Source of the DNA: an uncultured Atopobiaceae bacterium
GTDB taxonomy: Bacteria; Actinomycetota; Coriobacteriia; Coriobacteriales; Atopobiaceae
Direction: 5' to 3'
DNA length: 64,000 nt
NCBI GenBank assembly: GCA_944320975.1
Contig: CALUJM010000009.1
Location: 18,484 to 82,483 of the forward strand
The position numbers and the translations under genes were made by a program. Position 1 is the first letter of the stretch; the number at the start of each line of letters is the position of its first letter. Shown in pieces: positions 2,849 to 57,426 of the stretch. The notes under the pieces are model-generated. The model did no database searches, was not told the origin of the DNA, and was given only the letters and a program-made list of their open reading frames with translations.

Positions 2849-3543
2849 TGGTCATCAGCACCCGCACCAAGTTCACCGACCAGCTCAACGACGTCGAGGG
2901 CTACATCAGGCGCTTCGGCGAGAAGACCGTGTCCGACATCCGCGCAGCGGGCCTCGCCGCCCGTGGCGACAAGGGGGCGGCCGAGGGCGTCATGGACGGC
3001 CGCAAGGCGGAGGATCGCCTGCGCTCGGCCATCGAGAACACCTGCCTCGACATCATGCTGCTCCAGCAGCCGCTCATCGGAGTGGACCTGCGCTTCGTCT
3101 CGGGCGCCTTCCGCATGGTGAGCGACCTCTCTCACATCGACTCCATGACGCGTGACGCGGTCTTTCTCACCGAGGAGATCCCCGAGAAGGCTTCGGCCAA
3201 GATCGAGGCCGAGATCTCGCGGATGAGCGAGGGTGCTGCGGACATGGTCCAGAAGGCCGTCGACGCCTTCTGCGCCTCTGACGTCGAGGGCGCGCAGCAG
3301 GTCATGGAGGCCGACGCCGCCATCAACGCGCTGTACGTCGAGGTCGAGGAGAAGCTCGTCGCCCTCATCCGCGACGGCAAGTCCTCCGCGCAGTACCTGC
3401 CGGAGCTCCTCATGGTGGCCAAGTACTTCGAGCGCATCGGCGACCTCGCCAAGCGCATCGCCGCGTGGGCGATCTTTCGCGTGACCGGGGAGCACACCAT
3501 CGCCGAGAAGGAGAGCCAGCGACAGGCGCCTGCGGCGGAGTAG
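2848..3543 (+). CDS. phoU: Phosphate signalling regulator PhoU
   Basis: ATG 2848 overlaps the pstB stop (TAATG). The protein has a two-repeat PhoU architecture ending in ...AKYFERIGDLAKRIAAWAIF. Confidence 0.9.
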   Translation: MVISTRTKFTDQLNDVEGYIRRFGEKTVSDIRAAGLAARGDKGAAEGVMDGRKAEDRLRSAIENTCLDIMLLQQPLIGVDLRFVSGAFRMVSDLSHIDSMTRDAVFLTEEIPEKASAKIEAEISRMSEGAADMVQKAVDAFCASDVEGAQQVMEADAAINALYVEVEEKLVALIRDGKSSAQYLPELLMVAKYFERIGDLAKRIAAWAIFRVTGEHTIAEKESQRQAPAAE

Positions 3544-3584
3544 GGTACAGTAGGGTAGGTATCGAGTATCGGGAAGGAACAGCG

Positions 3585-4265
3585 GTGGTCTACTACGTAG
3601 AGGACGACAAGAACATCCGAGAGCTGACGGTCTACGCCCTCGGCCAGGGCGGCATCGAGGCGCGCGGCTGCGCCGACGACGCCGAGTTCCGTCGTGCCTG
3701 CGCCGAGCGCACCCCCGACGCCGTCCTTCTCGACATCATGCTGCCGGATGCGGACGGGCTGGAGATCCTTGCCCGCCTGCGCCGCACCCCCGGGCTCTCC
3801 CACGTCCCCGTCATGATGCTCACCGCCAAGGATACCGAGCTCGACACCGTCAAGGCGCTCGACTCCGGGGCGGACGACTACCTCTCGAAGCCCTTCGGCA
3901 TGATGGAGATGGTGAGCCGCACGCGCGCGCTGCTGCGTCGCTCCGGCCGCGAGACCGCCGTCCAGGAGAAGCCCGCCTCCCTGGTCTCCGGCGACGTGAC
4001 CCTGTGGCCTGACCGCCGCGAGGTCACCGCCGGGGACCGGGAGGTCCAGCTCACGATGCGCGAGTTCGACCTCCTGGAGTTCCTCATGCGCTCGCCGGGC
4101 GTCGTCTTCTCGCGCGAGACGCTGCTCCAGCGCGTCTGGGGCTGGGACTTCGACGGCGGCTCCCGCACCGTCGACGTGCACGTGCAGCAGATCCGAGCCA
4201 AGCTCGGCGACTCGTCGGACCTTATCGAGACCGTGCGCGGCGTCGGTTATCGCGTCCGCGGATAG
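3585..4265 (+). CDS. OmpR/PhoB-family response regulator
   Basis: GTG 3585 is preceded by GGGAAGGA. It has a receiver domain (VYYVEDD...LLDIMLPDADG...MLTAKD) and a winged-helix C-terminus (RTVDVHVQQIRAKL...TVRGVGYRV). Confidence 0.85.
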   Translation: MVYYVEDDKNIRELTVYALGQGGIEARGCADDAEFRRACAERTPDAVLLDIMLPDADGLEILARLRRTPGLSHVPVMMLTAKDTELDTVKALDSGADDYLSKPFGMMEMVSRTRALLRRSGRETAVQEKPASLVSGDVTLWPDRREVTAGDREVQLTMREFDLLEFLMRSPGVVFSRETLLQRVWGWDFDGGSRTVDVHVQQIRAKLGDSSDLIETVRGVGYRVRG

Positions 4266-4269
4266 GTGC

Positions 4270-4378
4270 GTGTGACAATTAGGACTGGTGCGACAATTGG
4301 GACAGGTTGAATTGTCACATAGGTACGATGTGACAATTCAACCTGTCCCAATTGTCGCACCAGTCCTAATTGTCACAC
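4270..4378. repeat. Family A palindrome, copy A1: perfect 50-bp arms, 9-nt loop, between response-regulator and kinase genes
   Basis: GTGTGACAATTAGGACTGGTGCGACAATTGGGACAGGTTGAATTGTCACA, loop TAGGTACGA, then the exact reverse complement. I verified the arms base by base. Confidence 0.95.
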
Positions 4379-4388
4379 CGAGAGGGGG

Positions 4389-5786
4389 ATGTCCATGACC
4401 AGGCAGCCCGGGCGCAAGGGCTCGCTCTCGCACAGGATGTTCGTGGCGTTCGTCGTGGCGTGCGCCAGCGTGGCCGTCGTGGTTACCACGGCGGCCTCCC
4501 TGCTCTATCAGTCCGCCTTCCTCGTCGACGAGCACGAGCAGCTCGCCGCCGAGTGCCGGACCCTCGCGTCGCTTCTCGACCAGACCGACGATGATGCGGC
4601 GGTCCTCTCGGCGCTCGAGCTCGGCGACATCCGCGCGACGCTCATCGACCCCGACGGCTCGGTCACCTTTGACTCGCAGGCCGACGCCGGCACGCTGGAG
4701 AACCACGGCGACCGCCCCGAGGTGGTCGCCGCCTTCGAGACGGGCTCCGGCGCCTCCGAGCGCGCGAGCGACACCGTTGGCTACACCAGCCTCTACGAGG
4801 CTGAGCGCCTCGAGTCGGGCCAAGTCATGCGCCTGTCCGTCGACCGCGCCGGCGTCCTGGCGTTCCTCTTCCAGGACCTCGTCCTTCTCGTCCTGCTCGC
4901 CGTGGTCCTGGTGGCCGCGAGCTGGGTGATCTCGCGCCGGCTCTCGCGGCGCTTCGTGCAGCCGATCCTCGAGATCGATCCGTCCTCCGGCGACGGGGTG
5001 GCGCCCTACGTGGAGCTCGACCCCCTCGTCACGCGCCTGAACGAGCAGCACGAGGAGCTCCTTCACCGCATGCGCGCGGTCCAGGACGCCGCCGACCTGC
5101 GCCGCGAGTTCACGGCAAACGTGACGCACGAGCTCAAGACGCCCATCGCGTCCATACAGGGCGCGGCAGAGCTCATACGCGACGGCATCGCCAAGAAGAA
5201 GGACGTCCCCGAGTTCGCCGGGCGCATCTACGATGACGCGCGACGCCTCTCGGACCTGGTGAGCGACATCCTCACCCTCTCCAAGCTCGACGACTCCGAG
5301 CGCAACGGCGACCAGGAGCTCTTCGAGCCCTCCGAGACCGTCGACCTGCTCTCGGTGGCGCGCGACGTGACCGACCGCCTGGGGCCCAAGGCGCGCAAGG
5401 TCGGCGTCGGCGTGAGCGTGGGCGGCGTTTCGTGCCCCGTGCGCGGCAACGCGCGCCTGATCGACGAGCTCGTGACCAACCTCTGCGACAACGCCATCCG
5501 CTACAACCGCGTGGGCGGCAAGGTCTACGTCTGGGCGCTTCCCGTGGACGGGCGCCCGGCGCTGCGCGTGAGCGACACGGGCATCGGCATCCCCGCCGAG
5601 GCCCAGCCCAAGGTCTTCGAGCGCTTCTACCGCGTGGACAAGGGGCGGAGCCGCGACATGGGCGGGACGGGCCTGGGCCTTGCCATCGTCAAGCACGCGG
5701 CCGCCTATCACGACGCGGAGATCAAGCTCGAGAGCGAGATCGGCAAGGGCACCACGATCACCGTGCTGTTCCCGTCGGCGGCGTGA
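4389..5786 (+). CDS. Sensor histidine kinase (PhoR/SenX3-like partner of the preceding regulator)
   Basis: Contains two TM segments, an H-box (FTANVTHELKTPIASI), an N-box (CDNAIRYN) and G-boxes (DTGIGIP, GGTGLGLAIVKH). Confidence 0.85.
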   Translation: MSMTRQPGRKGSLSHRMFVAFVVACASVAVVVTTAASLLYQSAFLVDEHEQLAAECRTLASLLDQTDDDAAVLSALELGDIRATLIDPDGSVTFDSQADAGTLENHGDRPEVVAAFETGSGASERASDTVGYTSLYEAERLESGQVMRLSVDRAGVLAFLFQDLVLLVLLAVVLVAASWVISRRLSRRFVQPILEIDPSSGDGVAPYVELDPLVTRLNEQHEELLHRMRAVQDAADLRREFTANVTHELKTPIASIQGAAELIRDGIAKKKDVPEFAGRIYDDARRLSDLVSDILTLSKLDDSERNGDQELFEPSETVDLLSVARDVTDRLGPKARKVGVGVSVGGVSCPVRGNARLIDELVTNLCDNAIRYNRVGGKVYVWALPVDGRPALRVSDTGIGIPAEAQPKVFERFYRVDKGRSRDMGGTGLGLAIVKHAAAYHDAEIKLESEIGKGTTITVLFPSAA

Positions 5787-5874
5787 GCGCCTGACGCCGC
5801 GTCCTTCTTAAGAAAACCTGTCAGGTTTCGCCCCTTCGTGCGTATCGTAGGTAGAGACGACGAGGGGAGGGGAC

Positions 5875-6381
5875 ATGCGCGCGAAGAAGCAGGCGGTGAG
5901 GTTGGTCAATGACTACGCCGACCTCATCCTGCGCCTCTCCTACACCTATCTGGGGTCGACTGCCGACGCCGAGGACGTTTGCCAGGAGGTCCTCCTCAAG
6001 CTGCTGGGTCGCGCCGAGGGCTTCGAGGGCCCCGAGCACGAGCGCGCCTGGGTGGTGCGCGTGACGGCCAACCACTGCAAGGACCTGCTGCGCCGCCGCG
6101 CCGCGCGGCCGACCGTCGCGCTCGACGAGGCGCCGGAGCCTGCAGCGCCCGAAACCGTCGATGCTCGCGGGCGCGCCGAGCTCGTCCTGCGCGCCGTCAT
6201 GCGCCTCCCTCTCGAGTACCGGGAGGCCATCTTCCTGCGCTACTACGAGAACTACTCCGTTCGTGACATCGCCCGGGCGTGCGGCTGCGGCGAGGACGCG
6301 GCCGCCGCGCGCCTGAGCCGCGGCCGCGCAAAGCTGAAGGTGCTGCTCAAGGAGGCTGGTTACGATGAAGAAGACCTTTGA
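5875..6381 (+). CDS. ECF-type RNA polymerase sigma-70 family factor
   Basis: 168 aa. It has region 2 (DAEDVCQEVLLKLL...ERAWVVRVTANHCKDLLRRR) and region 4 (LEYREAIFLRYYENYSVRDIARACGCGEDAAAARLSRGRAKL). Confidence 0.85.
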   Translation: MRAKKQAVRLVNDYADLILRLSYTYLGSTADAEDVCQEVLLKLLGRAEGFEGPEHERAWVVRVTANHCKDLLRRRAARPTVALDEAPEPAAPETVDARGRAELVLRAVMRLPLEYREAIFLRYYENYSVRDIARACGCGEDAAAARLSRGRAKLKVLLKEAGYDEEDL

Positions 6382-9079: not shown

Positions 9080-9179
9080 GGCGGATCTCCATCCTCGGGG
9101 TGGCGGGCGTCTCCATCATACCCGCGCGTCGGATGCGCATGCGCGACTCGTGACGGCCGGGCAGGACATCAAACCCTCC

Positions 9180-9201
9180 GACCCAAATCCGGATTTGGGT
9201 C
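9180..9201. repeat. Family B short palindrome (GACCCAAATCC|GGATTTGGGTC), copy B1
   Basis: A perfect 22-nt palindrome. Confidence 0.9.
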
Positions 9202-9292
9202 CGCCGCCGTGGGGGCCGCTGGGGCTGATCGTTTTTATCGATGAACAACTTAGCCCTGGAGTTGACCTCGCAGCCAAGACGCGCTGCGCTGA

Positions 9293-9387
9293 CCGAGAAG
9301 TGCCCACCACTTCGGACCCAAATCTGGATTTGGGTCCGCCCAGAACCCAAATCCTGATTTGAGTCCGAAGCCGAGGGCACTTCTCGG
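9293..9387. repeat. Composite palindromic block: family B copies B2 (9313-38) and degenerate B3 (9342-67), bracketed by the 12-bp inverted repeat CGAGAAGTGCCC / GGGCACTTCTCG
   Basis: CGGACCCAAATCTGGATTTGGGTCCG followed by AGAACCCAAATCCTGATTTGAGTCCG. The outer inverted repeat lies at 9294-9305 / 9375-9386. Confidence 0.85.
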
Positions 9388-9477
9388 CTTGCGGGGCGCC
9401 GCCGGACCGGGGGATAGCCCGCAAGGTTAAGTTCATAACCAAGGGGACGCAACGTCTTCGGTGGCCCCTGCCGGCGC

Positions 9478-9501
9478 GGACCCAAATCCGGATTTGCGTC
9501 C
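9478..9501. repeat. Family B short palindrome, copy B4
   Basis: GGACCCAAATCCGGATTTGCGTCC (1 mismatch). Confidence 0.85.
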
Positions 9502-13076: not shown

Positions 13077-13290
13077 CGTCTTGAGAGGTGCGGCTACGCG
13101 ACGGTTCTTCTCGCCAGACCGTCGTCTGCCCGCACATCAACGGGACCGGTGCGGCAACGCGACACTTTCGTCGCCCAAAGCGTCGCGGATTCGCACCCCA
13201 ACGTGAGAGGTGCGGCTACGCGACGGTTCTTCTCGCCAGACCGTCGTCTGCCCGCACATCAACGGGACCGGTGCGGTAACGCGACACCTT
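13058..13290 (+). repeat. Family F array F1: about 122-124-bp direct repeat x2 (= four ~61-nt GGTGCGG...CCGCAC hairpin units)
   Basis: The unit GTCGCGGATTCGCACC..GAGAGGTGCGGCTACGCGACGGTTCTTCTCGCCAGACCGTCGTCTGCCCGCACATCAACGGGACCGGTGCGG(C/T)AACGCGACAC occurs twice. Copy 1 includes the last 6 codons and the stop of queH. Confidence 0.9.
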
Positions 13291-30983: not shown

Positions 30984-31200
30984 ACCCTTCTTCTGGGCGG
31001 CGGCCGGAACCGCCGCGTTGGGTCGTTAGGCGTAGTATAGGCGCGCTGACCGGCGAATTCTTTGCGCAAATCCCGAAGCTTCCGCCTGCGGCGATACTGT
31101 TGGGCGGGCGGTATAAGGAGACGCGGCTGCCAGGGGCGTCAAACGAAGGACCCGGCACCGCAGGGGGCGGCACCGGGTCCACATCAAACTTTTGTGTGAA

Positions 31201-31217
31201 TTGGGGACTGTCCCCAA
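31201..31217. repeat. Family H hairpin (TTGGGGAC-T-GTCCCCAA) just downstream of the ilvC stop
   Basis: A perfect 8-bp-arm palindrome, 11 nt from the ilvC stop codon. Confidence 0.85.
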
Positions 31218-31227
31218 CTAACAGACG

Positions 31228-32223
31228 CTACTTCTTAATCCAGCTGAACATGGAGCGGATCTTCTCGCCGGTCTTCTCGATGGGGTGGGAGTTGATGGCC
31301 TCGCGCTGCTCGAGGAGCCACTTGTGGCCGTTGTTGCAGTCGTCGACGAACTCCTGCGCGAAGCTGCCGTCCTGGATGCGGGCCAGGATGCGCTTCATCG
31401 CCTCGCGGGACTCGGCATTGATGACCTGCGGGCCGGCGTAGTACTCGCCGTACTCGGCGGTGTTGGAGATCGAGTAGTTCATGAAGTGGATGCCGGACTC
31501 GTACATGAGGTCGACGATCATCTTCATCTCGTGGTAGACCTCGAAGTAGGCCAGCTCCTCGGGGTAGCCCGCCTCGGTCAGGGTCTCGAAGCCGGCCTTG
31601 ACCAGCTCGACGAGGCCGCCGCAGAGCACGGCCTGCTCGCCGAAGAGGTCTTCCTCGGTCTCCTCCTTGAAGGTGGCCTTGATGATGCCGGAGCGGGCGC
31701 CGCCGACGCCCCAGCAGTAGGAGAGCGCGATGTCCCAGGCGTCGCCGGTGGCGTCCTGCGCCACGCACGCGAGGTCGGGCACGCCGGAGCCCTCGGTGTA
31801 CTGACGGCGGACGATGTGGCCCGGGCCCTTGGGCGCGCACATGATGACGTTGACGTCCTCGGGCGCCTTGATGTAGCCGTAGTGGATGTTGAAGCCGTGT
31901 GCGAAGGCGAGGGTGTCGCCGGCCTTGAGGTGGTCCTTGACGTGCTCCTCGTAGACCTTGGGCTGGATCTCGTCGGGGACGAGCATCATGATGACGTCGG
32001 CCTCCTCCGCCGCGTCGTCCATGCTCATGACCTTGAGGCCGGCCTCCTGCGCCGCCTGGGCGGACTTGGAGCCCTCGCGCAGGCCAACGCGGACGTCCAC
32101 GCCGGAGTCCATGAGGTTGAGCGCGTGGGCGTGGCCCTGGGAGCCGTAGCCGATGATGGCGACCTTCTTGCCCAGGATCACCTCGGGGTTGACGTCGTTC
32201 TCGTAGTAGATGGTGACGGCCAT
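31228..32223 (-). CDS. ilvC: Ketol-acid reductoisomerase
   Basis: [11 protein letters not shown]...[17 protein letters not shown]... is canonical class I KARI. ATG 32223 follows TAAGGAGAAAAGC. Confidence 0.95.
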
Positions 32224-32299
32224 GCTTTTCTCCTTAGTCTTGCCGTTCGTTGCTATGCTCATCCGCCGAGAAGGACGGCGGGTGGTGCCGGGTGGGGCA

Positions 32300-32336
32300 A
32301 ATGATTCAAAAGGGGACTGTCCCCAATTGAATCATT
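32300..32336. repeat. Family H hairpin spanning the ilvN stop / ilvN-ilvC spacer
   Basis: AATGATTCAAAAGGGGAC-T-GTCCCCAATTGAATCATT (2 internal mismatches). It has the same GGGGACTGTCCCC core as 31201-17. Confidence 0.85.
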
Positions 32337-32820
32337 GCTCGTGTGCGCCGCGGGCCATGGCGATCTTGCCCGTGCGCGTGAGCTGCTTGATGCCGTAGCC
32401 GCGGAAGAGGTCCTCCATCGCGTCGAGCTTGCTCGCGGTGCCGGTGGCCTCGATTGTGAGCGAGTTCTTGCCCACGTCGACGACCTTGGCGCGGAAGACG
32501 TTGGCAATCTCGATGACCTCGTGGCGGCGCTCCGGGGATGCCTGCACCTTGAAGAGGACGAGCTCGCGCTCGACGGCCTCCTCGTAGGTGAGGTCTGAGA
32601 TCTTGTAGACCGAGACGAGCTTGTGGAGCTGCTTGGTGATCTGCTCGAAGCCTACCTCGTCTGCCTCAACGATGATGGTCATGCGCGAGAGGCTCTCGTC
32701 CTCCGTGGGGGCGACGGTGAGCGACTCGATGTTGAAGCCTCGGCGGCTGATGAGGCCCGTGACGCGGGAGAGCACGCCCGGCTTGTTCTCAACGAGAACG
32801 GAGAGCAGGTAGTTCATCAC
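32332..32820 (-). CDS. ilvN: Acetolactate synthase small (regulatory) subunit
   Basis: 162 aa with an ACT domain (LSVLVENKPGVLSRVTGLISRRGFNIESLTV). Overlaps the ilvB stop. Confidence 0.9.
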   Translation of the reverse strand: MMNYLLSVLVENKPGVLSRVTGLISRRGFNIESLTVAPTEDESLSRMTIIVEADEVGFEQITKQLHKLVSVYKISDLTYEEAVERELVLFKVQASPERRHEVIEIANVFRAKVVDVGKNSLTIEATGTASKLDAMEDLFRGYGIKQLTRTGKIAMARGAHEQ

Positions 32821-34691
32821 TCATCAACTCCTTCGTGGGACGGGCGCGGGCGTCCGGCCTCGCCGAAGCCCTTCTCGGTCACGCGGACGCCGCCGAGGGT
32901 CACGTCGAGCGCGCCGATGATGTCGTCGATCGGGGCGCCGGGGGCGACCATCGGGTAGACGGTCTGCGCGGCCGGGATGACCACGTCGAGCAGGTACGGG
33001 CCGTCGGCGGCGAGCATCTCGTCGAGCGCGGCGTCGACCTCGTCGGGATGCGAGATGCGGGCGGCCTGCCAGCCGTAGGCGTCGGCGAGCTTGACGAAGT
33101 CGGGGTTGTCCGCGAGCTCGGTGAACGAGAAGCGGTCGTTGTAGAAGAGGTGCTGCCACTGGTGGACCATGCCGAGGGCGCGGTTGTCGATGATGACCAC
33201 CTTGACGTTCACGCCGTTGATCTTGGCGGTGGCCATCTCCTGGCTGTTCATCTGGAACGAGCCGTCGCCGGCGATGCAGACGACCTGCTCGTCAGGGCAG
33301 CCGATCTTGGCGCCGATGGCGGCGGGGAAGCCGAAGCCCATCGTGCCGAGGCCGCCCGAGGAGATGAAGGTGCGCGCGTGCTCGCGGTGGATGTTCTGCA
33401 GCGCCCACATCTGGTGCTGGCCGACCTCGGTGGTGACGATGGAGGCGTGCGGGTCGAGCTTGTCGGAGAGCGTCTCGAGAAGGACCTCGGGGGCGATCTT
33501 GTCGGGGTAGTCCGCGAAGTCGGAGGTGTAGAACGGCCAGCGCTCGCGCCAGCTGAACACCTCGTCGCGCCAGGCCTCTGCGACCGGCGCGGCGCCCATC
33601 TTCTCGAGGCGCTCGTTGATCGCGGCGAGGACCACCTTGACGTCGCCCACGATGGGCACGGCGGGGTTCACGATCTTGCCGATCTCGGCCGGGTCGATGT
33701 CGATGTGGATGATCTTGGCGTGCGGGGCGAACTCCGACACCTTGCCGGTCACGCGGTCCGAGAAGCGCGCGCCGCAGGCGATGATGAGGTCGGACTCCGT
33801 TACGGCCATGTTGGCGTACTTGGAGCCGTGCATGCCCACGGGGCCGAGGTTGAGCGGGTTGGAGCAGGGGATGGCGGCCTTGCCCATGAGCGTGGTGACC
33901 ACCGGGATCTGCATGCGCTCGGCGAGCTCCACGAGCTCGGGGCAGGCGTGGGAGGCGACGATGCCGCCGCCGGCCATGATGAGCGGGCGCTTGGCCTCGG
34001 AGATGAGCTGCGCCGCCTGCTTGACCTGCTTGGCGTTGCCCTTGTAGGTGGGACGGTAGCTCGGGATGTTGACGGTGTCGGGATAGTGGAAGACCATCTC
34101 CGAGCCGGAGAGGTCGCTCGGGATGTCGATGAGCACGGGTCCCGGGCGGCCGGTCGAGGCGATGTAGAACGCCTCGCGGAAGGTGCGCGTGAGGTCGTCG
34201 GTTGACTGGAGCAGGAAGCTGTGCTTGACGATGGGCATGGTGATGCCCACGATGTCGGACTCCTGGAAGGCGTCCGTGCCGATGACGCCGCGCGTGACCT
34301 GGCCCGTGATGACGACCATGGGCACGGAGTCCATGTAGGCGGTGGCGATGCCGGTGACGGTGTTGGTGGCGCCGGGGCCCGACGTCACGAGGACCACGCC
34401 GACCTTGCCCGTGGCGCGCGCGTAGCCGTCGGCCATGTGCGTGGCGCCCTGCTCGTGGCGGGCGAGGACGTGATGGATCTTCTTGGAGTCGTAGAGCGCG
34501 TCGTAGATCTTGATGGCCTGGCCGCCGGGGTAGCCGAAGATGGTGTCCACGCCCTCGGCCTCGAGGCTGGCGATGATGGCCTGCGCCCCGGTCATGGTCT
34601 TGCCCTCGTGCTCGGTGCGGCTGCCCGGGCCGAACGGGCGCCCCTCGATGGCGCGCTGGCGCCGGGCGATCTTCTCCTCGGTGGTGATCAT
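32817..34691 (-). CDS. ilvB: Acetolactate synthase large (catalytic) subunit
   Basis: 624 aa. A ThDP enzyme with the GDG motif ([13 protein letters not shown]) and an AHAS-like N-terminus ([23 protein letters not shown]). Confidence 0.9.
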
Positions 34692-36352
34692 GACAGGTAT
34701 GCCCCCTTATCTGCGCTCGTGACCAGCTTTGCGTAGCGGGAGAGGACTCCCGTGGTGTACTTGGGTGCGGGCGGCTCCCACTGGGCGCGCCGCGCGGCGA
34801 GCTCGTCGGCGCTCACGCGCAGCTCGAGCGTGCCCGCCTGGATGTCGATGTCGATGACGTCGCCCTCGCGCACGAGCGCGATCGGGCCGCCGGCGGCCGC
34901 CTCGGGGGAGACGTGGCCGATGCACGGGCCCTTGGAGGCGCCGGAGAAGCGCCCGTCGGTGATGAGGGCCACGGAGCTCGCGAGCCCCATGCCGCAGATG
35001 GCCGAGGTCGGCGTGAGCATCTCGCGCATGCCGGGGCCGCCCGCCGGGCCCTCGTAGCGGATGACGACGACGTCGCCCGGGCTGATCTCGCCGCCGAAGA
35101 TGGCCTTGCAGGCCGCCTCCTCGGAGTCGAAGACGCGCGCGGGGCCGGAGTGGCGCCACATGCCCGGGTCGACGGCGCTCTTCTTGACGACGCCGCAGTC
35201 CGGCGCGAGGCTGCCGCGCATGACCTTGAGGCCGCCGTCGGGGGAGTAGGCGTTGTCGACGGAGCGGACGACCTCGCCGTCCACGGGCGGGCAGGCGTCG
35301 ACCCACTCGGCCATGGTGCCGTGGCAGGTGAGGGCGGTAAGGTCGAGGTGCCCGGTGCGGCCGAGCTCGCCGATGATGGCGGAGACGCCGCCGACATCGT
35401 TGAGATCCTGGATGTGCAGCGGGCCCGCGGGGGCGATGCGCACGATGTTGGGGGTCTCGGCGCTCGCGCGGTCCCAGTCGTCCATCGTGACGGGGCAGCC
35501 GGCGGCCTGCGCGATTGCGGTGAGGTGGAGCATGGTGTTGGTGGAGCCGCCGAAGGCCATGTCGAGCACAATGCCGTTGTGGATGGCCGCCGAGGTGAGG
35601 ATCTGGCGCGCGGTGAGGTTCTTCTCGACCAGCTCCATGACCTTCATGCCGGCCTGCTTGGCGAGGCGGATGCGCTCGGAGTAGACGGCCGGCACGGTGC
35701 CGTTGCCGGGAAGGGCGATGCCCAGGGCCTCGGCGAGGCAGCAGATGGAGTTGGCGGTGAACATGCCCGAGCAGCTGCCGCAGGTGGGGCAGGCCGTCCC
35801 CTCGAGCCAGTGGCACTCCTCCTCGGTCATGGTGCCGGCGGTGACCTGGCCCACGGCGTCGAAGAGGGAGTTGAGGTCGGTCTGGGAGCCGTCGCGTCCG
35901 CGGCCGGCGAGCATGGGGCCGCCGGAGACGAGGACGGTCGGGATGTCCAGGCGAGCCGCGGCGATGAGCATGCCGGGGACAATCTTGTCGCAGGAGGGGA
36001 TGAGGACCATCGCGTCGAACTGGTGGCCCTGGACCGCGCACTCCACGGAGTCCGCGATGACCTCGCGGCTCGTGAGGCTGTAGTGCATGCCCTCGTGGTT
36101 CATGGCGATGCCGTCGCACACGCCGATGGTGTTGACCTGCAGCGGGGTGCCGCCGGCCATACGGACGCCGGCTTTGACGGCGTCGGCGATCTGCTGGAGG
36201 TGGAGGTGCCCGGGGATGACCTCGTTCTGGGCGGAGATGACGGCCACGAGCGGGCGGTCGAGCTCCTCGTCGGTGAGGCCGTCGGCCTTGAGGAGGCTCC
36301 GGTGCGGCGCGCGCGCCAGGCCTCGCTTGATCATGTCGCTTCTCAGCTGCAT
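34688..36352 (-). CDS. ilvD: Dihydroxy-acid dehydratase
   Basis: 554 aa with the IlvD/Edd signatures [11 protein letters not shown] and [10 protein letters not shown]-like ([14 protein letters not shown]). Confidence 0.95.
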
Positions 36353-36600
36353 GCTGTCCTCGCTTTCTCTTGTCAGGTGCGAGAAATGCGAGGTGCAGCC
36401 TCGAAGCCGTCACGGTGGCCGCCGGCACGCGGTACTTCTCGGCGCGTCGGCGGGGTTGTCCCGGCGGCCGCGCGGAGGTTCTCGCGAGCTGCTCGAGGGA
36501 GTCTTCGGAGCCGTCCGGCGCGGGTTCTCACGCTGCCCGCTCGCTGTGGGACGGATGCGGCCCGTACTGGCCCTGTCATCGCATTTGCTCGTGGCTCGTT
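36353..36600 (-). promoter_or_regulatory. Candidate T-box-like leader of the ilvD-ilvB-ilvN-ilvC operon
   Basis: On the minus strand, a Stem-I-like module spans 36490-36583. It reads TGCGATGA(7 nt)AGTA...CCGTCC-cacAGCGA-GCGGG-cagcGTGAGAA-CCCGC-gcc-GGACGG...GAAGACTCCCTCGAGCA (K-turn halves, AGTA box, AGVGA bulge, distal loop, specifier-like loop). An AGTACCGCG match to part of the T-box sequence lies at 36428-36. The UGGN bulge is not evident. Confidence 0.4.
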
Positions 36601-36660
36601 ACTCTACGCGCGCCGTGTTTCCGGGGCGTAATCGCCCGCGAACGGCAACGTTTCGCCTCC

Positions 36661-36786
36661 GAGCGGTGAGACGGTGGGGACCCAAGTGACCCAAATGGGG
36701 ACAGGATACTTTTGGGACATCTGCTCGGATGTCCCAAAAGTATCCTGTCCCCATTTGGGTCACTTGGGTCACACTGTCTCACCGCT
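36661..36786. repeat. Long palindromic element (family C, left flank of the Y1 transposase)
   Basis: Outer stem GAGCGGTGAGAC / GTCTCACCGCTC. Inner arms are GACCCAAGTGACCCAAATGGGGACAGGATACTTTTGGGACATC and its complement, around loop TGCTCG. Confidence 0.9.
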
Positions 36787-36847
36787 CGACGTGTACGCCC
36801 TTCCCTCTTTTGGGTATCAGGAAAGGACCGGGGGGAGAGGAGGCGGC

Positions 36848-37588
36848 ATGCGTACGGCGCGGGCGATTTCTAAAAGCGGGTACTATCACGTCATCCTGCG
36901 GGGCGACGGCAAGCGGCAAATCTTCGAGGATGACTTCGACAGGAGGGCGTTTCTCGGCCTCGTGGAGAGCTGCCTCGTCGCTCGCGGGGTCGACGTTGTC
37001 GCCTGGTGCCTCATGAGCAACCACGTGCATCTTGTGGTCTGCGACACTGAGGAGAACCTGAGCGAGGCCGTCGGCTCGCTCGCCATGCGCTACGCGCGGC
37101 GCTTCAACGCGCGGACCGGTCACGTCGGGCACGTATTTCAAGAGCGGTTCAAAAGCTCTCCCATCGAGAGCGACGCATATCTTCTCGAGGCTGTCCGCTA
37201 TGTTCACAACAACCCTGAGAAGAGCGGCATCTGCCGTGCCGAGGAGTACCCCTGGAGCAGCTACTCGGAATATGTCGCGGGTCCAAAGATCTGTGATACG
37301 GAAGTCATTCTTGACATGCTTGGCGGGGTGGAAGGCTTCAAGGAGTTCTGCTCCGCTGCGCCCTCGACTATCTATAGGTTCACGGGTCATGTGAGGATTC
37401 CCGACGACGAGATGGGGGAAGTGGCGAGGTCTGCGCTCGGAGACGTCTCCGTTTACGACGTGAGGGCGCTCCCGGCGGGCGAGAGAAACGAGAAGCTTCG
37501 CGCTCTTCGCGAATGCGGGCTCTCTGTCCGTCAAATTGAGCGGCTTACGGGGATTGGGGCCAAGACCATCACGCGAGCGACAACGTGA
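36848..37588 (+). CDS. IS200-like Y1 (HUH) tyrosine transposase, REP-associated (RAYT-like), with C-terminal HTH-like tail
   Basis: HUH motif in CLMSNHVHLVVC. Catalytic Tyr motif in AVRYVHNNPEKSG. N-terminus YYHVILRGDGKRQIFEDD. ATG 36848 follows GAGAGGAGG. The stop TGA lies inside the right hairpin. Confidence 0.85.
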   Translation: MRTARAISKSGYYHVILRGDGKRQIFEDDFDRRAFLGLVESCLVARGVDVVAWCLMSNHVHLVVCDTEENLSEAVGSLAMRYARRFNARTGHVGHVFQERFKSSPIESDAYLLEAVRYVHNNPEKSGICRAEEYPWSSYSEYVAGPKICDTEVILDMLGGVEGFKEFCSAAPSTIYRFTGHVRIPDDEMGEVARSALGDVSVYDVRALPAGERNEKLRALRECGLSVRQIERLTGIGAKTITRATT

Positions 37589-37691
37589 CCCAAATGACCC
37601 AAATGGGGACAGGATACTTTTGGGACATCCGAGCAGATGTCCCAAAAGTATCCTGTCCCCATTTGGGTCCCCATTTGGGTCATTTGGGTCA
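37585..37691. repeat. Long palindromic element (family C, right flank of the Y1 transposase)
   Basis: TGACCCAAATGACCCAAATGGGGACAGGATACTTTTGGGACATC, loop CGAGCA, then the complement with one extra CCCCATTTGGGT unit. Confidence 0.9.
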
Positions 37692-37703
37692 GTCCTCACT
37701 GTC

Positions 37704-38924
37704 TCACAGGGAGGTCTGGACGAGGGTGGGGGAGAAGCCCGCGGCCTCGAGGGCGCCCACGATCTGCGCCTTGTGGTCGCTTCCGAAGGCCTCGATCGTC
37801 ACGCGCAGCTCCACGGCGGCGTTGCGGTTGGTCGAGACGAACTGGTTGTGCTCGAGCTTGATGACGTTGCCGTTCTGCTCCGCGACGGCCTGCGCGACGC
37901 GCACGAGCATGCCGGGGCGGTCGGGCAGCAGCACGCTCACGGTGAAGATACGGTCGCGCATGATCAGCCCGTGCTGCACCACGGAGCTCATCGTGATGAC
38001 GTCCATGTTGCCGCCTGAGAGGATCGAGACCACGCGCTTGTTCTCGGCGGGCAGGTGCTTGAGCGCCGCCACGGTGAGCAGGCCCGAGTTCTCGACAATC
38101 ATCTTGTGGTTCTCGACCATGTCGAGAAACGCAACCACGAGCTCGTCGTCCGGCACGGTCATGACGTCGTCGAGGTTGTCGCGCAGGTACGGGAAGACCC
38201 GGTCGCCCACCTCGAGCACCGCGGTGCCGTCGGCGATGGTGTTGGCGCTCGGCAGCTTCACGGGGGAGCCCGCCTCAAGCGCGGCGGTAAGCGAGGGCGC
38301 GCCCGCCGGCTCAACGCCGATGACTCGGATTTTGGGGTTGTAGAGCTTGGCGAAGGTGGCGACGCCGCACGCGAGGCCGCCGCCGCCCACCGGGACCAGG
38401 ATCGTGTCGACGAGCGGCAGCTCCTGCACGACCTCCATCGCGATCGTCCCCTGGCCCGTGGCGACCGTCGGGTCGTTGAAGGGGTGGATGAAGGTGTACC
38501 CCTCGCGCTCGGCGAGCTCGAGGGCATGGTCGCACGCCTCGTCGTAGACGTCGCCGTGCAGCACGACCTCGGCGCCGTAGTGCTTGGTCCTCTCGACCTT
38601 GATGAGCGGCGTCGTCTCGGGCATGACCACGACCGAGCGCGCGCCGGCGCGGGTGGCGGCAAAGGCGACGCCCTGGGCGTGGTTGCCCGCGCTCGCGGTG
38701 ATGATGCCGCGCCCGAGCTCCTCGGGGGAGAGGGTCGAGATCTTGTAGTAGGCGCCGCGCACCTTGTAGGCCCCGGTGCGCTGGAGGTTCTCGGGCTTGA
38801 GCCAGACGCGGTTCCCCGTCTGGGCCGAGAAGTGCGGGCTCTCCACGAGCTTGGTCTCGAGCGTGACCTCGCGGACCTTCTCGGAGGCCTCCTCAAACGC
38901 CTCGAGCGTGAGCATCTCTGCCAT
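37704..38924 (-). CDS. ilvA: Threonine ammonia-lyase (threonine dehydratase) with C-terminal ACT-like domain
   Basis: PLP-site sequence (ENLQRTGAYKVRGAYYK, ASAGNHAQGVA, GGGGL). ATG 38924 follows GAGGGGGA. The track ORF extends spuriously to 40052 across a tRNA gene. Confidence 0.9.
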   Translation of the reverse strand: MAEMLTLEAFEEASEKVREVTLETKLVESPHFSAQTGNRVWLKPENLQRTGAYKVRGAYYKISTLSPEELGRGIITASAGNHAQGVAFAATRAGARSVVVMPETTPLIKVERTKHYGAEVVLHGDVYDEACDHALELAEREGYTFIHPFNDPTVATGQGTIAMEVVQELPLVDTILVPVGGGGLACGVATFAKLYNPKIRVIGVEPAGAPSLTAALEAGSPVKLPSANTIADGTAVLEVGDRVFPYLRDNLDDVMTVPDDELVVAFLDMVENHKMIVENSGLLTVAALKHLPAENKRVVSILSGGNMDVITMSSVVQHGLIMRDRIFTVSVLLPDRPGMLVRVAQAVAEQNGNVIKLEHNQFVSTNRNAAVELRVTIEAFGSDHKAQIVGALEAAGFSPTLVQTSL

Positions 38925-39038
38925 GACATCCCCCTCATAAAGTAGACGGCGCGTTACGGCCCCGTCACCGGTTTTTCGTTTGCCTATAGTAGACCTGCCG
39001 GGGCGGGGGCGCCGCGGCGCGAGGCGAAGGGGCATCAA

Positions 39039-39872
39039 ATGGAAACCATCGAGAAGAACCGCGCGGCCGGCGCCGCACAGGGGACTCCGCTCTTCCAGAT
39101 TCACGACGCGAGCGTGGTTCGCGGAGGCAAGACCATCCTCCACGTCGCGGACTTCTCGCTTGCCGAGGGCGAGCACGTCGCCCTTCTCGGCCCCAACGGG
39201 GCGGGAAAGTCCACCTTCATCCAGCTCCTCACCCGAGAGGTCTTCCCCCTGTGGCGCGAGGAGCCGCCGGTGCTCTTCCGCGGCCAGGCCCGGCCCCAGC
39301 TCGCCGACATCAAGCGGACCCTCGGAATCGTGAGCTCGACGATGCACGACCAGGTGCGCGTCCACCTGCCGGTCATCGACATCGTGGTGGGCGGCATCTT
39401 TGGCACGCTCGGCGTGCCGCTGCGCGGAAAGGTGGGCGAGAAGGACCGCGCGCTCGCGTTGGACGCCCTTGGCCGCCTCGGCATCGCCGAGCTCGCCGAC
39501 CGCGACGTCATGACGCTCTCCACGGGCCAGGTGCGCCGCGTGCTCGTCGCGCGCGAGCTCGTGCGCGACCCCCAGGTCCTCATCTTCGACGAGCCCTGCA
39601 CCGGGCTCGACCCCCAGGGCATGTACCACGTCCGCCAGACCATGGGCACGCTCGCCGCCGAGGGGCGCTCGGTGGTGCTCGTGACGCACTACCCCGAGGA
39701 CATCATCCCGGAGATCCGCCGCGTCCTTCTCATCAAGGACGCCGAGGTCTTCGCTGACGGTCCCAAGGAGGATCTGCTCACCGGGGAGGTCATGAGCGGG
39801 CTCTTTGACGTCCCGCTCGTGGTGGGGGAGGCCGACGGGTGGTACTCCCTGCGCGGCACGTACGAGGCGTGA
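39039..39872 (+). CDS. ABC transporter ATP-binding protein (orphan ATPase, ModF-like)
   Basis: Walker A GPNGAGKST, signature LSTGQVRR, Walker B VLIFDEP. There is no adjacent permease gene. Confidence 0.8.
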   Translation: METIEKNRAAGAAQGTPLFQIHDASVVRGGKTILHVADFSLAEGEHVALLGPNGAGKSTFIQLLTREVFPLWREEPPVLFRGQARPQLADIKRTLGIVSSTMHDQVRVHLPVIDIVVGGIFGTLGVPLRGKVGEKDRALALDALGRLGIAELADRDVMTLSTGQVRRVLVARELVRDPQVLIFDEPCTGLDPQGMYHVRQTMGTLAAEGRSVVLVTHYPEDIIPEIRRVLLIKDAEVFADGPKEDLLTGEVMSGLFDVPLVVGEADGWYSLRGTYEA

Positions 39873-44841: not shown

Positions 44842-44892
44842 ACCTGCCGGCCCAGCGTCCTTCTCGGCAAACCCGGATCCAGTGCTGTGTTC

Positions 44893-44925
44893 GCCGCGGA
44901 CCCAAATCCGCATTTGGGTCCGCGG
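44893..44925. repeat. Family B palindrome, copy B5 (15-bp stem, loop CCGC)
   Basis: GCCGCGGACCCAAAT-CCGC-ATTTGGGTCCGCGGC. Confidence 0.9.
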
Positions 44926-45028
44926 CGGCAGTGGCTTTCGAGGTTGCTAATTCGTTTAGATTACGGACTTAATTTTGCGGACTGTCCTCAGGTCCAGGGG
45001 CGCCTCGCTAGCCGAGAAATGACCTCGA

Positions 45029-45060
45029 CTCCGGACCCAAATCCGCATTTGGGTCCGGAG
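45029..45060. repeat. Family B palindrome, copy B6 (14-bp stem, loop CCGC)
   Basis: CTCCGGACCCAAAT-CCGC-ATTTGGGTCCGGAG. Confidence 0.9.
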
Positions 45061-45167
45061 CAGCGGGCACTTCTCGTCAAGCGGGGCGTTCCTCAGCCGA
45101 GAGGTTAACCCCGGGTTCAAGTTCTTCATCGACAAGAACGTTTGGGCCCAACGGCCGCCACGGTACG

Positions 45168-45221
45168 GGACCCAAATCCGGATTTGGGTCCGCCGAGAAC
45201 GCAAATGAGGATTTGGGTCCC
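45168..45221. repeat. Family B palindromes, copies B7 (45168-91) and degenerate B8 (45195-221)
   Basis: GGACCCAAATCCGGATTTGGGTCC followed by GAGAACGCAAATGAGGATTTGGGTCCC. This is the same intact-plus-degenerate doublet layout seen at 9313-9367. Confidence 0.85.
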
Positions 45222-57227: not shown

Positions 57228-57410
57228 TTTGAGGTGCGGGAGATGGACGTTTTCAAGGCGCAGGCCGTCCATCTCCCGCACCTTAACGGTTGGGGTGCGG
57301 GAGATGGACGGCCTGGGAGGGAAAAGTGTCGCGCAGCCGCACCTTTCCCCTTGAGGTGCGGAAACTGGACGATTTGATGGGGAAAAACGTCGCGCGGCCG
57401 CACCTCAACG
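57228..57410 (+). repeat. Family F array F2: three tandem ~61-nt hairpin units
   Basis: The units begin (G)AGGTGCGG and end CCGCACCT(C/T)AACGG. Unit 1 has a perfect 17-bp stem GGTGCGGGAGATGGACG / CGTCCATCTCCCGCACC. Confidence 0.9.
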
Positions 57411-57426
57411 GGCGAGAAGAACCTTG

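Follow-up and report, generated by a model that had tools for sequence, protein, structure and literature searches.

The spacer between ilvA and ilvD in a 64,000-nucleotide (nt) stretch of DNA from an uncultured Atopobiaceae bacterium (contig CALUJM010000009.1; this whole stretch is called the window below) probably holds a TIRtron, i.e., the gene of a TIR-associated tyrosine transposase (TIRYT) together with its cognate end repeats. The gene encodes a HUH/Y1 transposase-like protein and has a long palindrome at each end. The fold and catalytic motifs of the protein, the architecture of the ends, the dispersal of the repeats, the synteny of the locus, purifying selection on the gene, mirrored evolution of the palindromes and co-variation between a protein helix and the repeat stem are established here. 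The TIRtron/TIRYT kind is thereby extended to the Coriobacteriia, which are unnamed in the text and examined supplements of two papers that describe such genes (Di Nocera et al., 2013, PMC3733652; Quentin et al., 2018, PMC6006769). The palindromic end dimers of this member are unusually long, and a small family of such dimers is dispersed.

TIRYT genes are RAYT-like and are flanked by terminal inverted repeats that share the sequence GGGGWSAS. Among these repeats, some are self-complementary or form double palindromes, and some make up modest dispersed families of single, dimeric or clustered copies (Di Nocera et al., 2013, PMC3733652). Class 2 of the Y1 proteins is marked by the motif Y-x-x-x-N-P. 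The members of its subclass 2.1 are long and have been equated with the TIRYTs of Di Nocera et al. (2013), and subclass 2.1.2 was described with a C-terminal helix-turn-helix (HTH) (Quentin et al., 2018, PMC6006769; PMC3733652).

An ENA contig (L002) matches the window with 99.99% identity, and OZ006999.1, the chromosome of an uncultured Atopobiaceae metagenome-assembled genome (MAG) of the same species, does so with 96.7%. The combination of palindromes and gene recurs in three independent metagenome assemblies and in one HiFi MAG and is therefore not an assembly artefact.

A HUH/Y1 protein with a predicted C-terminal helix-turn-helix domain

An earlier note on this DNA had read the coding sequence at 36848–37588 as a HUH/Y1 transposase-like gene with an HTH-like tail. 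The first part of that reading holds, and a C-terminal HTH is predicted. The Pfam model Y1_Tnp (PF01797) scores 50.5 bits over residues 10–122, where its cut-off is 23 (E = 2.7e-13). The HuH motif is H59-V-H61 in NHVHLVV (nt 37022–37030), the catalytic tyrosine is Y118 in RYVHNNP (Y-x-x-x-N-P, nt 37199–37216) and a WSS motif is formed by W136-S137-S138. A weak sequence alignment with TnpA_REP of E. coli (4er8_A) places NHVHL on EHMHC and RYVHNNP on DYIYINP, so that both the HuH motif and the tyrosine align with 4ER8. Residues H59, H61, Y118, N122, P123 and W136-S137-S138 are invariant across 55 aligned homologues. An AlphaFold model made with these 55 homologues has a mean predicted local distance difference test (pLDDT) score of 90.4, and its best PDB match in Foldseek is again 4er8_A (E = 1.2e-7, template modelling score on the target 0.68), followed by the TnpA proteins of IS608 and ISDra2.

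Judged by such features, the protein is a TnpAY1 of class 2 and most like subclass 2.1. The spacing from H61 to Y118 is 57 residues and was counted as agreeing with the ~58–67 residues of class 2.

Residues ~186–245 form a helical domain of five helices that ends in a predicted helix-turn-helix, LSVRQIERLTGIGAKTITRA, and residues 238–245 are the predicted recognition helix. The domain was modelled with pLDDT values of 86–96, and a separate model of the C-terminal part gave 86. Pfam gave only sub-threshold HTH matches for it, to HTH_31 and HTH_7 with this protein and to HTH_23 with P0035. The best fold match is the DNA-binding domain of M. tuberculosis DnaA (3pvp), followed by ParB/Spo0J, and these matches are non-significant; a profile of the C-terminal part gave no significant match against PDB sequences. 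Weak sequence matches of the Pol beta/AlkA type had prompted a helix-hairpin-helix reading of the residues LTGIG. It was set aside because distant homologues show the usual HTH pattern (LGISRxTVxR-like) and because the fold search favours, non-significantly, an HTH of the DnaA/ParB type. The full-length architecture is common, with 725 clusters at 50% identity with E ≤ 1e-30.

Long palindromes at both ends of the gene

As the earlier note had it, two long palindromes of one repeat family bracket the gene in a REPtron-like arrangement; their perfect arms measure 43 and 34 nt (Table 1). Each arm of the inner left palindrome reads GACCCAAGT-GACCCAAAT-GGGGACAGGATACTTTTGGGACATC. The right palindrome is extended by slipped GACCCAAAT/ATTTGGGTC units, two on its 5′ side and three on its 3′ side. 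They reach 37586–37691 and agree with the extra sub-unit that had been noticed in the right copy; the first of them contains the TGA stop of the gene, and a tandem 12-nt slip lies at 37655–37681. A 25-nt core is found exactly four times in the window, where none is expected, and GGGGACAG is present in all four arms. Folded as single-stranded DNA, the left end reaches -78.2 kcal/mol (z = -20.8) and the right end -55.1 kcal/mol (z = -12.7). With up to one mismatch, GACCCAAAT occurs 25 times in the window against 5.4 expected, and its exact copies are confined to the flanks of the gene and to two short intervals at 9.18–9.50 and 44.90–45.22 kb.

The left and right loops, TGCTCG and CGAGCA, are mutually reverse complementary in the window, as had been claimed. 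They are not so as a fixed feature, since both loops read TGCTCG in OZ006999.1 (L033), and the inverted loop orientation is thus specific to the strain of the window. The proteins of the two genomes differ in a single residue and the ends differ much more: the 9-nt units differ in number and spelling, and the changes in the outer stem of the left palindrome are largely compensated.

Comparison with related loci shows how these ends are built. The basic end unit consists of a variable stem half, GGGGACAGG, about 5 nt and the other stem half, spelled G(A/T)CCCAAAn-GGGGACAGGAnnnnn-TTGGGAC in the lineage of the window, and each end in the window is a head-to-head dimer of this unit that makes one long perfect palindrome. 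A Thermophilibacter genome (L007) has the gene at the same locus with 60% identity, placed between simple inverted repeats that consist of GTGAGACgttGGGGACAGGTTCATTTGTCTCAT and its complement. In Ca. Olsenella avicola (L004, 80% identity) the left end has one arm and the right end a full hairpin. The ancestral unit, GTGAGAC...GGGGACAGG...GTCTCAC, is intact in L007 and in one dispersed copy (L040), where the GTGAGAC module is the outer layer. The left outer stem of the window (GTGAGACGGTG/CACTGTCTCAC) is a unit stem of the L007 type. Host homology on the ilvD side stops near 36660–36666, which puts the left boundary of the element at ~36667.

The earlier note had further pointed to an 11-nt direct repeat, CACTGTCTCAC, at 36772–82 and 37697–707. 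The repeat is present at both positions, and its count is within chance (3 matches with up to one mismatch against 1.1 expected, a number reached in 10 of 100 shuffles). It is the 3′ half-stem (GTCTCAC) of the end unit on either side of the gene. The right half-stem overlaps the last codon and stop of ilvA (CTG TGA GAC), where GTCTCACAG is conserved in L004 and L007, and owing to this overlap it survives alone. As the same module belongs to the end unit in L007 and L040, an interpretation as a target-site duplication was rejected.

The plan of the ends is not tied to the ilv locus. It recurs at unrelated loci between whiA and gap in Arabiibacter (L011), between hisS and macB (L058) and between tsaD and nadE (L061). 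We compared 80 metagenome loci with protein identities down to 32%, and most of those with enough flank have inverted ends of the form stem half-GGGGAC(A/G)G...-other stem half. The same holds for most of the ~85 related loci with enough flank, again down to 32% identity, which have inverted ends with GGGGAC(A/G)G or GGGAC(A/G)G; ~20 related loci are without a convincing inverted repeat.

A small family of dispersed hairpins

A collection of species-representative genomes was scanned once for GGGGACAGGANNNNNTTGGGAC, and 46 stretches were found. About 20 of these are single matches in unrelated taxa, which is the chance level for 17 specified bases. The remaining stretches belong to Atopobiaceae or Collinsella, and most have two inverted arms 10–14 nt apart; Collinsella is also among the genomes with such paired arms. 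There are nine loci in OZ006999.1 (the gene locus, L033, and eight others), six in Ca. O. avicola (five besides the gene locus), three and five in two further Atopobiaceae MAGs and one in O. uli. The dispersed copies are near-perfect palindromes of the form GTG(A/T)CCCAAAnGGGGACAGGAnnnnnTTGGGACAy-loop-complement. Their inner five nt vary, and the other arm compensates in almost every copy. The variant that flanks the gene, GATACTTTT, is the commonest one in OZ006999.1 (four of the eight dispersed loci). According to a crude analysis of open reading frames (ORFs), the copies lie 8–36 nt past stop codons and often between convergent genes.

Orthologous dispersed copies from different species differ almost wholly by mirrored pairs of substitutions, as in L019/L027 at positions 43 and 101 and in L039/L056, where all but one inner-stem position (4 nt from the loop) were settled as mirrored. 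The non-orthologous copies L018/L043 behave likewise. The symmetry of the palindromes is thus maintained, whether through selection or through a templated mechanism. The earlier note had suggested a domesticated transposase with dispersed substrates; dispersal is confirmed for the long hairpins, found at at least eight other loci in OZ006999.1, and the short palindromes that the note had in mind are not supported as partners (see below).

A single repeat arm, TCCCAAAAGGGGACAGGAGCAAATTGGGACAT, was also seen at 4497–4518 of L051 (OZ006979.1), within a long ORF with a high GC content at third codon positions. It may be an in-frame intragenic repeat insertion.

Long residency and purifying selection

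Homologues occupy the ilvA/ilvD spacer or an ilvD-adjacent site in L004 (80% identity), O. uli L052 (78%), Collinsella tanakaei L150 (65%, with GGGGCCAGG hairpins), L025 (62%), L007 (60%) and L063 (53%, where the gene adjoins ilvD). The same locus is thus occupied across Olsenella, Thermophilibacter and Collinsella. In L063 a segment from ilvA to an ABC transporter (3001–6099) is inverted relative to the window, with the breakpoint at the right end of the gene.

Comparing the ilvA-ilvD spacer, as the earlier note had in mind, yielded a lineage that lacks the gene and no clean empty site. In this sole gene-less lineage (L147–149, Atopobiaceae, IlvA 94% identical) the spacer is also devoid of any GGGGACNG motif. 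A gene for a 539-aa multi-pass membrane protein with no Pfam match (L147, 5218–6837) fills the spacer instead.

The ratio of non-synonymous to synonymous substitution rates (dN/dS) is 0.18 against L004 and 0.29 against L007, so the gene is under purifying selection and functional. In its behaviour the gene looks domesticated: it stays at one locus in several genera, it is conserved by selection and the window has no other Y1 gene. Its dS values (0.85 for L004, 1.19 for L007) are 3–4 times those of ilvA, ilvD and ilvB (0.20–0.37), and its GC content is 60.5% against 67.8% for the window; between lineages it varies over 55.5–69%. The high dS and low GC could stem from weak codon bias or from recombination that replaced the allele. 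Identity to Ca. Olsenella avicola (L004) is 93.8% on the ilvC-ilvD side (~31147–36668) and 84% from the gene rightwards (36811–39864). The drop coincides with the left palindrome and suggests a recombination boundary at this point.

Co-variation of the recognition helix and the repeat stem

The stem beside GGGGAC varies by lineage, and so does the predicted recognition helix. The helix GIGAKTITR goes with the stem xCCCAAA in the window, L004, L025, L052 and L058, the last of which belongs to this group despite 52% overall identity and another locus. Helices of the type G(I/V)GRN in which a small residue (A/S/C) stands two places ahead of the final RA go with GAGAC (L007, L068, L069, L072, L086), and GINRG goes with GTGTCAG (L077, L084, L089). 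Other G(I/V)GRN helices (L108, L112 and L116, with GRNIVQ/L) stand beside the stems AAGACAC, GTGTCAAA and GAAGTCAA, so the rule is not simply GRN.

With 36 dereplicated loci, a partial Mantel test of helix against stem, given the identity of the N-terminal/catalytic domain, returned r = 0.35 (p = 0.0002), while the reverse partial correlation of the catalytic domain given the helix was 0.08. As a control for shared ancestry an 8-residue window was slid along the whole protein. The window from residue 237 (GAKTITRA) ranked first of 238 with a partial r of 0.30 (mean of all windows -0.003, standard deviation 0.082), and the top eight windows all fall within residues 231–245. This statistical hint suggests that the HTH reads the variable stem and the HUH core the conserved GGGGAC element. 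As far as the searched literature shows, such co-variation has not been reported before.

These data bear on two other explanations. If the hairpins were unrelated to the protein, i.e., ordinary palindromes or terminators that stand by chance beside a stray transposase gene, one could understand that the dispersed copies sit in terminator-like positions and that the 11-mer alone is within chance. Homologues at unrelated loci (L058, L011, L061), however, carry the repeat architecture on both sides, the stem co-varies with the recognition helix and the L147 spacer is without both the gene and GGGGACNG, all of which makes a chance association highly improbable.

A better case, which we still regard as unlikely, can be made for a fully domesticated protein that binds or processes DNA (hairpins or cruciforms at forks, or an HTH regulator), with the palindromes as retained host elements, terminators or mRNA stabilisers, that are merely bound. 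The long residency of the gene beside ilvD, the purifying selection on it, the low and stable copy number of the repeats, the orthology of copies between species, their position at 3′ ends of genes and the co-variation, as a maintained protein-DNA recognition relationship, would all fit. Yet H59, H61, Y118 and N122 are invariant in 55 of 55 homologues, a sign that the cutting and joining of strands is still required. The prevalence of the gene-flanking variant in OZ006999.1 is as expected if the ends of the gene still seed copies, and no runs of T follow the hairpins.

Relation to known systems

REPtrons, made up of a RAYT/TnpA_REP gene with its REPs and REPINs, are said to have been described by Nunvar in 2010, by Bertels and Rainey in 2011 and by Ton-Hoang in 2012, with 4ER8 as the structure. 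The present locus resembles them in its Y1 gene, the only one in the window, bracketed by a repeat family that is also dispersed extragenically, in inverted doublets that form hairpins (the REPIN concept), in a syntenic position across genera that is compatible with vertical descent and in TnpA_REP being the closest solved fold. In contrast to REPtrons, the feet of the hairpins are GTG(A/T)CCC (GTGACCC or GTGTCCC) with no conserved GT[AG]G, the protein has an extra domain of predicted HTH type, the arms abut with a loop of 4–14 nt and the copies number ~10, not hundreds. Likewise for REPINs, the doublet-hairpin structure is present and the gene-flanking variant is the commonest, but there are ~10 copies instead of tens to hundreds. 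The NCBIfam model REP_Tyr_transpos (NF047646) scores 63 bits, under its cut-off of 80. From this score, the absence of GT[AG]G feet and the GGGGWSAS arms, we conclude that the gene is not a classical RAYT; the RAYT reading of the earlier note survives as a REPtron-like arrangement.

It is also very unlikely that an active autonomous IS200/IS605-type insertion sequence has its left and right ends in the two hairpins between ilvA and ilvD. Such an element would explain the Y1 HUH fold with its structural matches to the TnpA proteins of IS608 and ISDra2, with which the catalytic residues and presumably the chemistry on single-stranded DNA hairpins are shared, as well as the hairpins at both ends. 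Many homologues are on ~1-kb contigs, as is seen for repeated elements, but assembly breaks at long palindromes explain such contigs equally well. On the other hand, the NCBIfam IS200 model (NF033573) scores 16 bits against a cut-off of 55, the tyrosine motif is Y-x-x-x-N-P and not Y-x-x-x-Q, and the ends are symmetric inverted repeats instead of distinct left and right ends. The window holds one copy where multiple full copies would be usual, no tnpB partner was found beside the gene, the same locus is occupied in at least three genera and the dispersed copies are gene-less hairpins, not full elements.

The likeness to TIRtrons is closer. The HUH/Y1 protein is longer than classical RAYTs and has a C-terminal extension predicted to be of the HTH type, GGGGACAG in the arms fits GGGGWSAS exactly on both flanks of the gene, some ends are self-complementary or doubled, dispersed families are modest and occur in some genomes, and the gene copy number is low. 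What differs is that the ends here are near-perfect palindromes of 92–129 nt, head-to-head dimers with tandem 9-nt stem modules, and that a clear dispersed family is present, where none that is REP-like was seen for subclass 2.1 by Quentin et al. (2018).

Several points weigh against the TIRtron reading and the roles it gives to protein and repeats. The survey of Quentin et al. (2018, PMC6006769) found no REP-like sequences beside subclass 2.1 genes, and no activity is reported for any TIRYT in the literature searched. With ~10 hairpins in 2.77 Mb by exact pattern, the family is far below classical REP/REPIN populations. No insertion polymorphism was found, and comparable dispersed copies are orthologous between species, which leaves recent mobility unproven. 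A lone arm has no significant fold (z = -0.48), and the DnaA match of the C-terminal domain has an E-value of 0.84. Tests of the Mantel type can be inflated by shared ancestry, which the sliding-window control lessens and does not remove. Finally, the 3–4 times higher dS and lower GC could reflect recombinational replacement and not strict vertical descent.

Other features of the window

The coordinates are collected in Table 1. The unit is antisense in the ilv cluster, as the earlier note had stated, with the gene on the forward strand and both ilvA and ilvD on the reverse strand. The domains of ilvA were read on the identical gene in the 97.9%-identical strain L001, and its homologues carry the name threonine ammonia-lyase. 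A purine-rich GGAGG stretch comparable to the ribosome-binding site precedes the start codon in L004.

Table 1. Coordinates of features in the 64,000-nt window.
Feature	Position	Strand	Remarks
Left end, nested palindrome, 129 nt	36660..36788	.	Repeat finder, single-stranded DNA fold
Left outer stem (17 nt), holds GTGAGACGGTG / CACTGTCTCAC	36660-36676 / 36772-36788	.	Repeat finder
Left inner perfect palindrome, 43-nt arms	36679-36721 / 36728-36770	.	Loop TGCTCG 36722-36727; repeat finder
Ribosome-binding site GGAGAGGAGG ahead of ATG	36834..36843	+	Read from sequence
HUH/Y1 TIRYT-type transposase-like gene	ATG 36848 .. TGA 37586-37588	+	246 aa
Predicted C-terminal helix-turn-helix, residues 225-245, LSVRQIERLTGIGAKTITRAT	37520..37582	+	Model helices 227-234, 238-245
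Right end palindrome, 106 nt	37586..37691	.	Repeat finder, single-stranded DNA fold
Right perfect 34-nt arms	37596-37629 / 37636-37669	.	Loop CGAGCA 37630-37635; repeat finder
CACTGTCTCAC, orphan 3′ half-stem module of right end unit	37697..37707	.	Overlaps ilvA stop (tca 37704-37706 on +)
ilvA, threonine ammonia-lyase, flanking host gene	37704..38924	-	Convergent with transposase-like gene; PALP and ACT Pfam domains
ilvD, dihydroxy-acid dehydratase, flanking host gene	34688..36352	-	ILVD_EDD Pfam domains in L004, L007
ilvD leader, parts ilvD from left palindrome	36353 to ~36660	-	Conserved in L004, L007, L147
GGACCCAAATCCGGATTTGGGTCC-type exact palindromes, 9-kb cluster	9180-9201, 9315-9336	.	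9479-9500 is a one-mismatch copy
GGACCCAAATCCGGATTTGGGTCC-type exact palindromes, 45-kb cluster	44899-44920, 45034-45055, 45169-45190

Both here and in Arabiibacter (L011, a different locus with 55% identity), the motif CGACGTGTACG stands in the interval from the left end repeat to the start codon (36789–36798 in the window, ~5978–5990 in L011). It could serve the unit as a conserved promoter, operator or cleavage-site element. The ilvD leader has a weak and partial T-box match at 36485–36588 (28.7 bits, E = 4e-4; gathering score 93) and contains the T-box-core-like GAGAAGTACCGCG. The leader could be a T-box of an atypical actinobacterial kind, or else a different leader RNA, in control of the ilvD-ilvBNC operon. 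A promoter and terminator scan of 36300–37900 gave nothing that exceeds shuffles, and no intrinsic-terminator T-runs were seen after the hairpins in this region. At the gathering threshold Rfam found two tRNAs only in the whole window; at an E-value threshold the hairpins match generic miRNA-precursor models far under the cut-offs, which is meaningless. PADLOC and PHROGs gave no matches and thus no link to defence systems or phages.

The earlier note had equated the outer stem of the ends with short dispersed palindromes elsewhere in the window. Exact GACCCAAAT copies do occur at 9 and 45 kb, but these palindromes and the ends of the gene have only a 9-mer in common. The GGACCCAAATCCGGATTTGGGTCC-type palindromes belong to two ~320-nt composite repeats (9170–9500 and 44890–45220) with three to four of them each. 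A spacing of 135 nt separates the first two in each cluster; from there to the third it is 164 nt at 9 kb and again 135 nt at 45 kb. Each composite has the plan P-X-P-X'-P and forms one large imperfect palindrome (fold z = -8.6); the mean column identity of the two is ~68%. The short palindromes were absent both from ~72 kb of further sequence of OZ006999.1 and from ~130 kb that belongs to related genomes. Given the distinct composite palindrome and the common 9-mer only, we did not find the short GACCCAAAT palindromes supported as substrates of the enzyme; a link is possible insofar as the stem spelling is identical. In strain L001 (8352–8633, against 44868–45198 of the window) the 45-kb composite is replaced by a different palindromic sequence, GAGAATGCCATATGGGACGG...CCGTCCCATATGGCATTCTC, at a hypervariable intergenic spot upstream of argS. 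Tandem Repeats Finder also reported arrays with a 61-nt period at 13087–13285 (3.3 copies) and 57276–57411 (2.2 copies), with ~70% matches.

Proposed mechanism and meaning

From the fold, the conserved residues and the co-variation we infer the following mechanism for the TIRtron. When the DNA is single-stranded, e.g., on the lagging-strand template, the palindromes would extrude as hairpins. The HUH/Tyr core would recognise the conserved GGGGAC(A/G)G element and then cut and rejoin one strand, as TnpA_REP and IS608 TnpA do, and the C-terminal HTH would read the lineage-specific stem and so set the repeat family that is acted upon. The dispersed dimers would be mobilised as REPIN-like non-autonomous partners, and the host might benefit from 3′-end hairpins that act as terminators or mRNA stabilisers.

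A more specific form of this idea, which we put forward tentatively and hold to be possible rather than probable, is recognition in two parts. The HUH core would read GGGGAC(A/G)G and the HTH the adjacent lineage-specific stem, which in many cases is multiplied into tandem 9-nt boxes; exchanging a few residues of the helix 238–245 would re-target the enzyme, and the palindromes would be kept symmetric through copying by the enzyme or hairpin-templated repair.

TIRYTs, or subclass 2.1, are the second largest branch of the RAYT-like enzymes, a known kind that has barely been studied. The locus and its relatives make up a compact system in gut Coriobacteriia in which one can see the gene together with its end repeats and a small dispersed family. 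Nothing is overturned by it, and the co-variation of helix and stem gives a testable rule of specificity that points to a binding experiment. If recognition in two parts is true, a few substitutions in a single helix would re-target the enzyme to a new repeat family.

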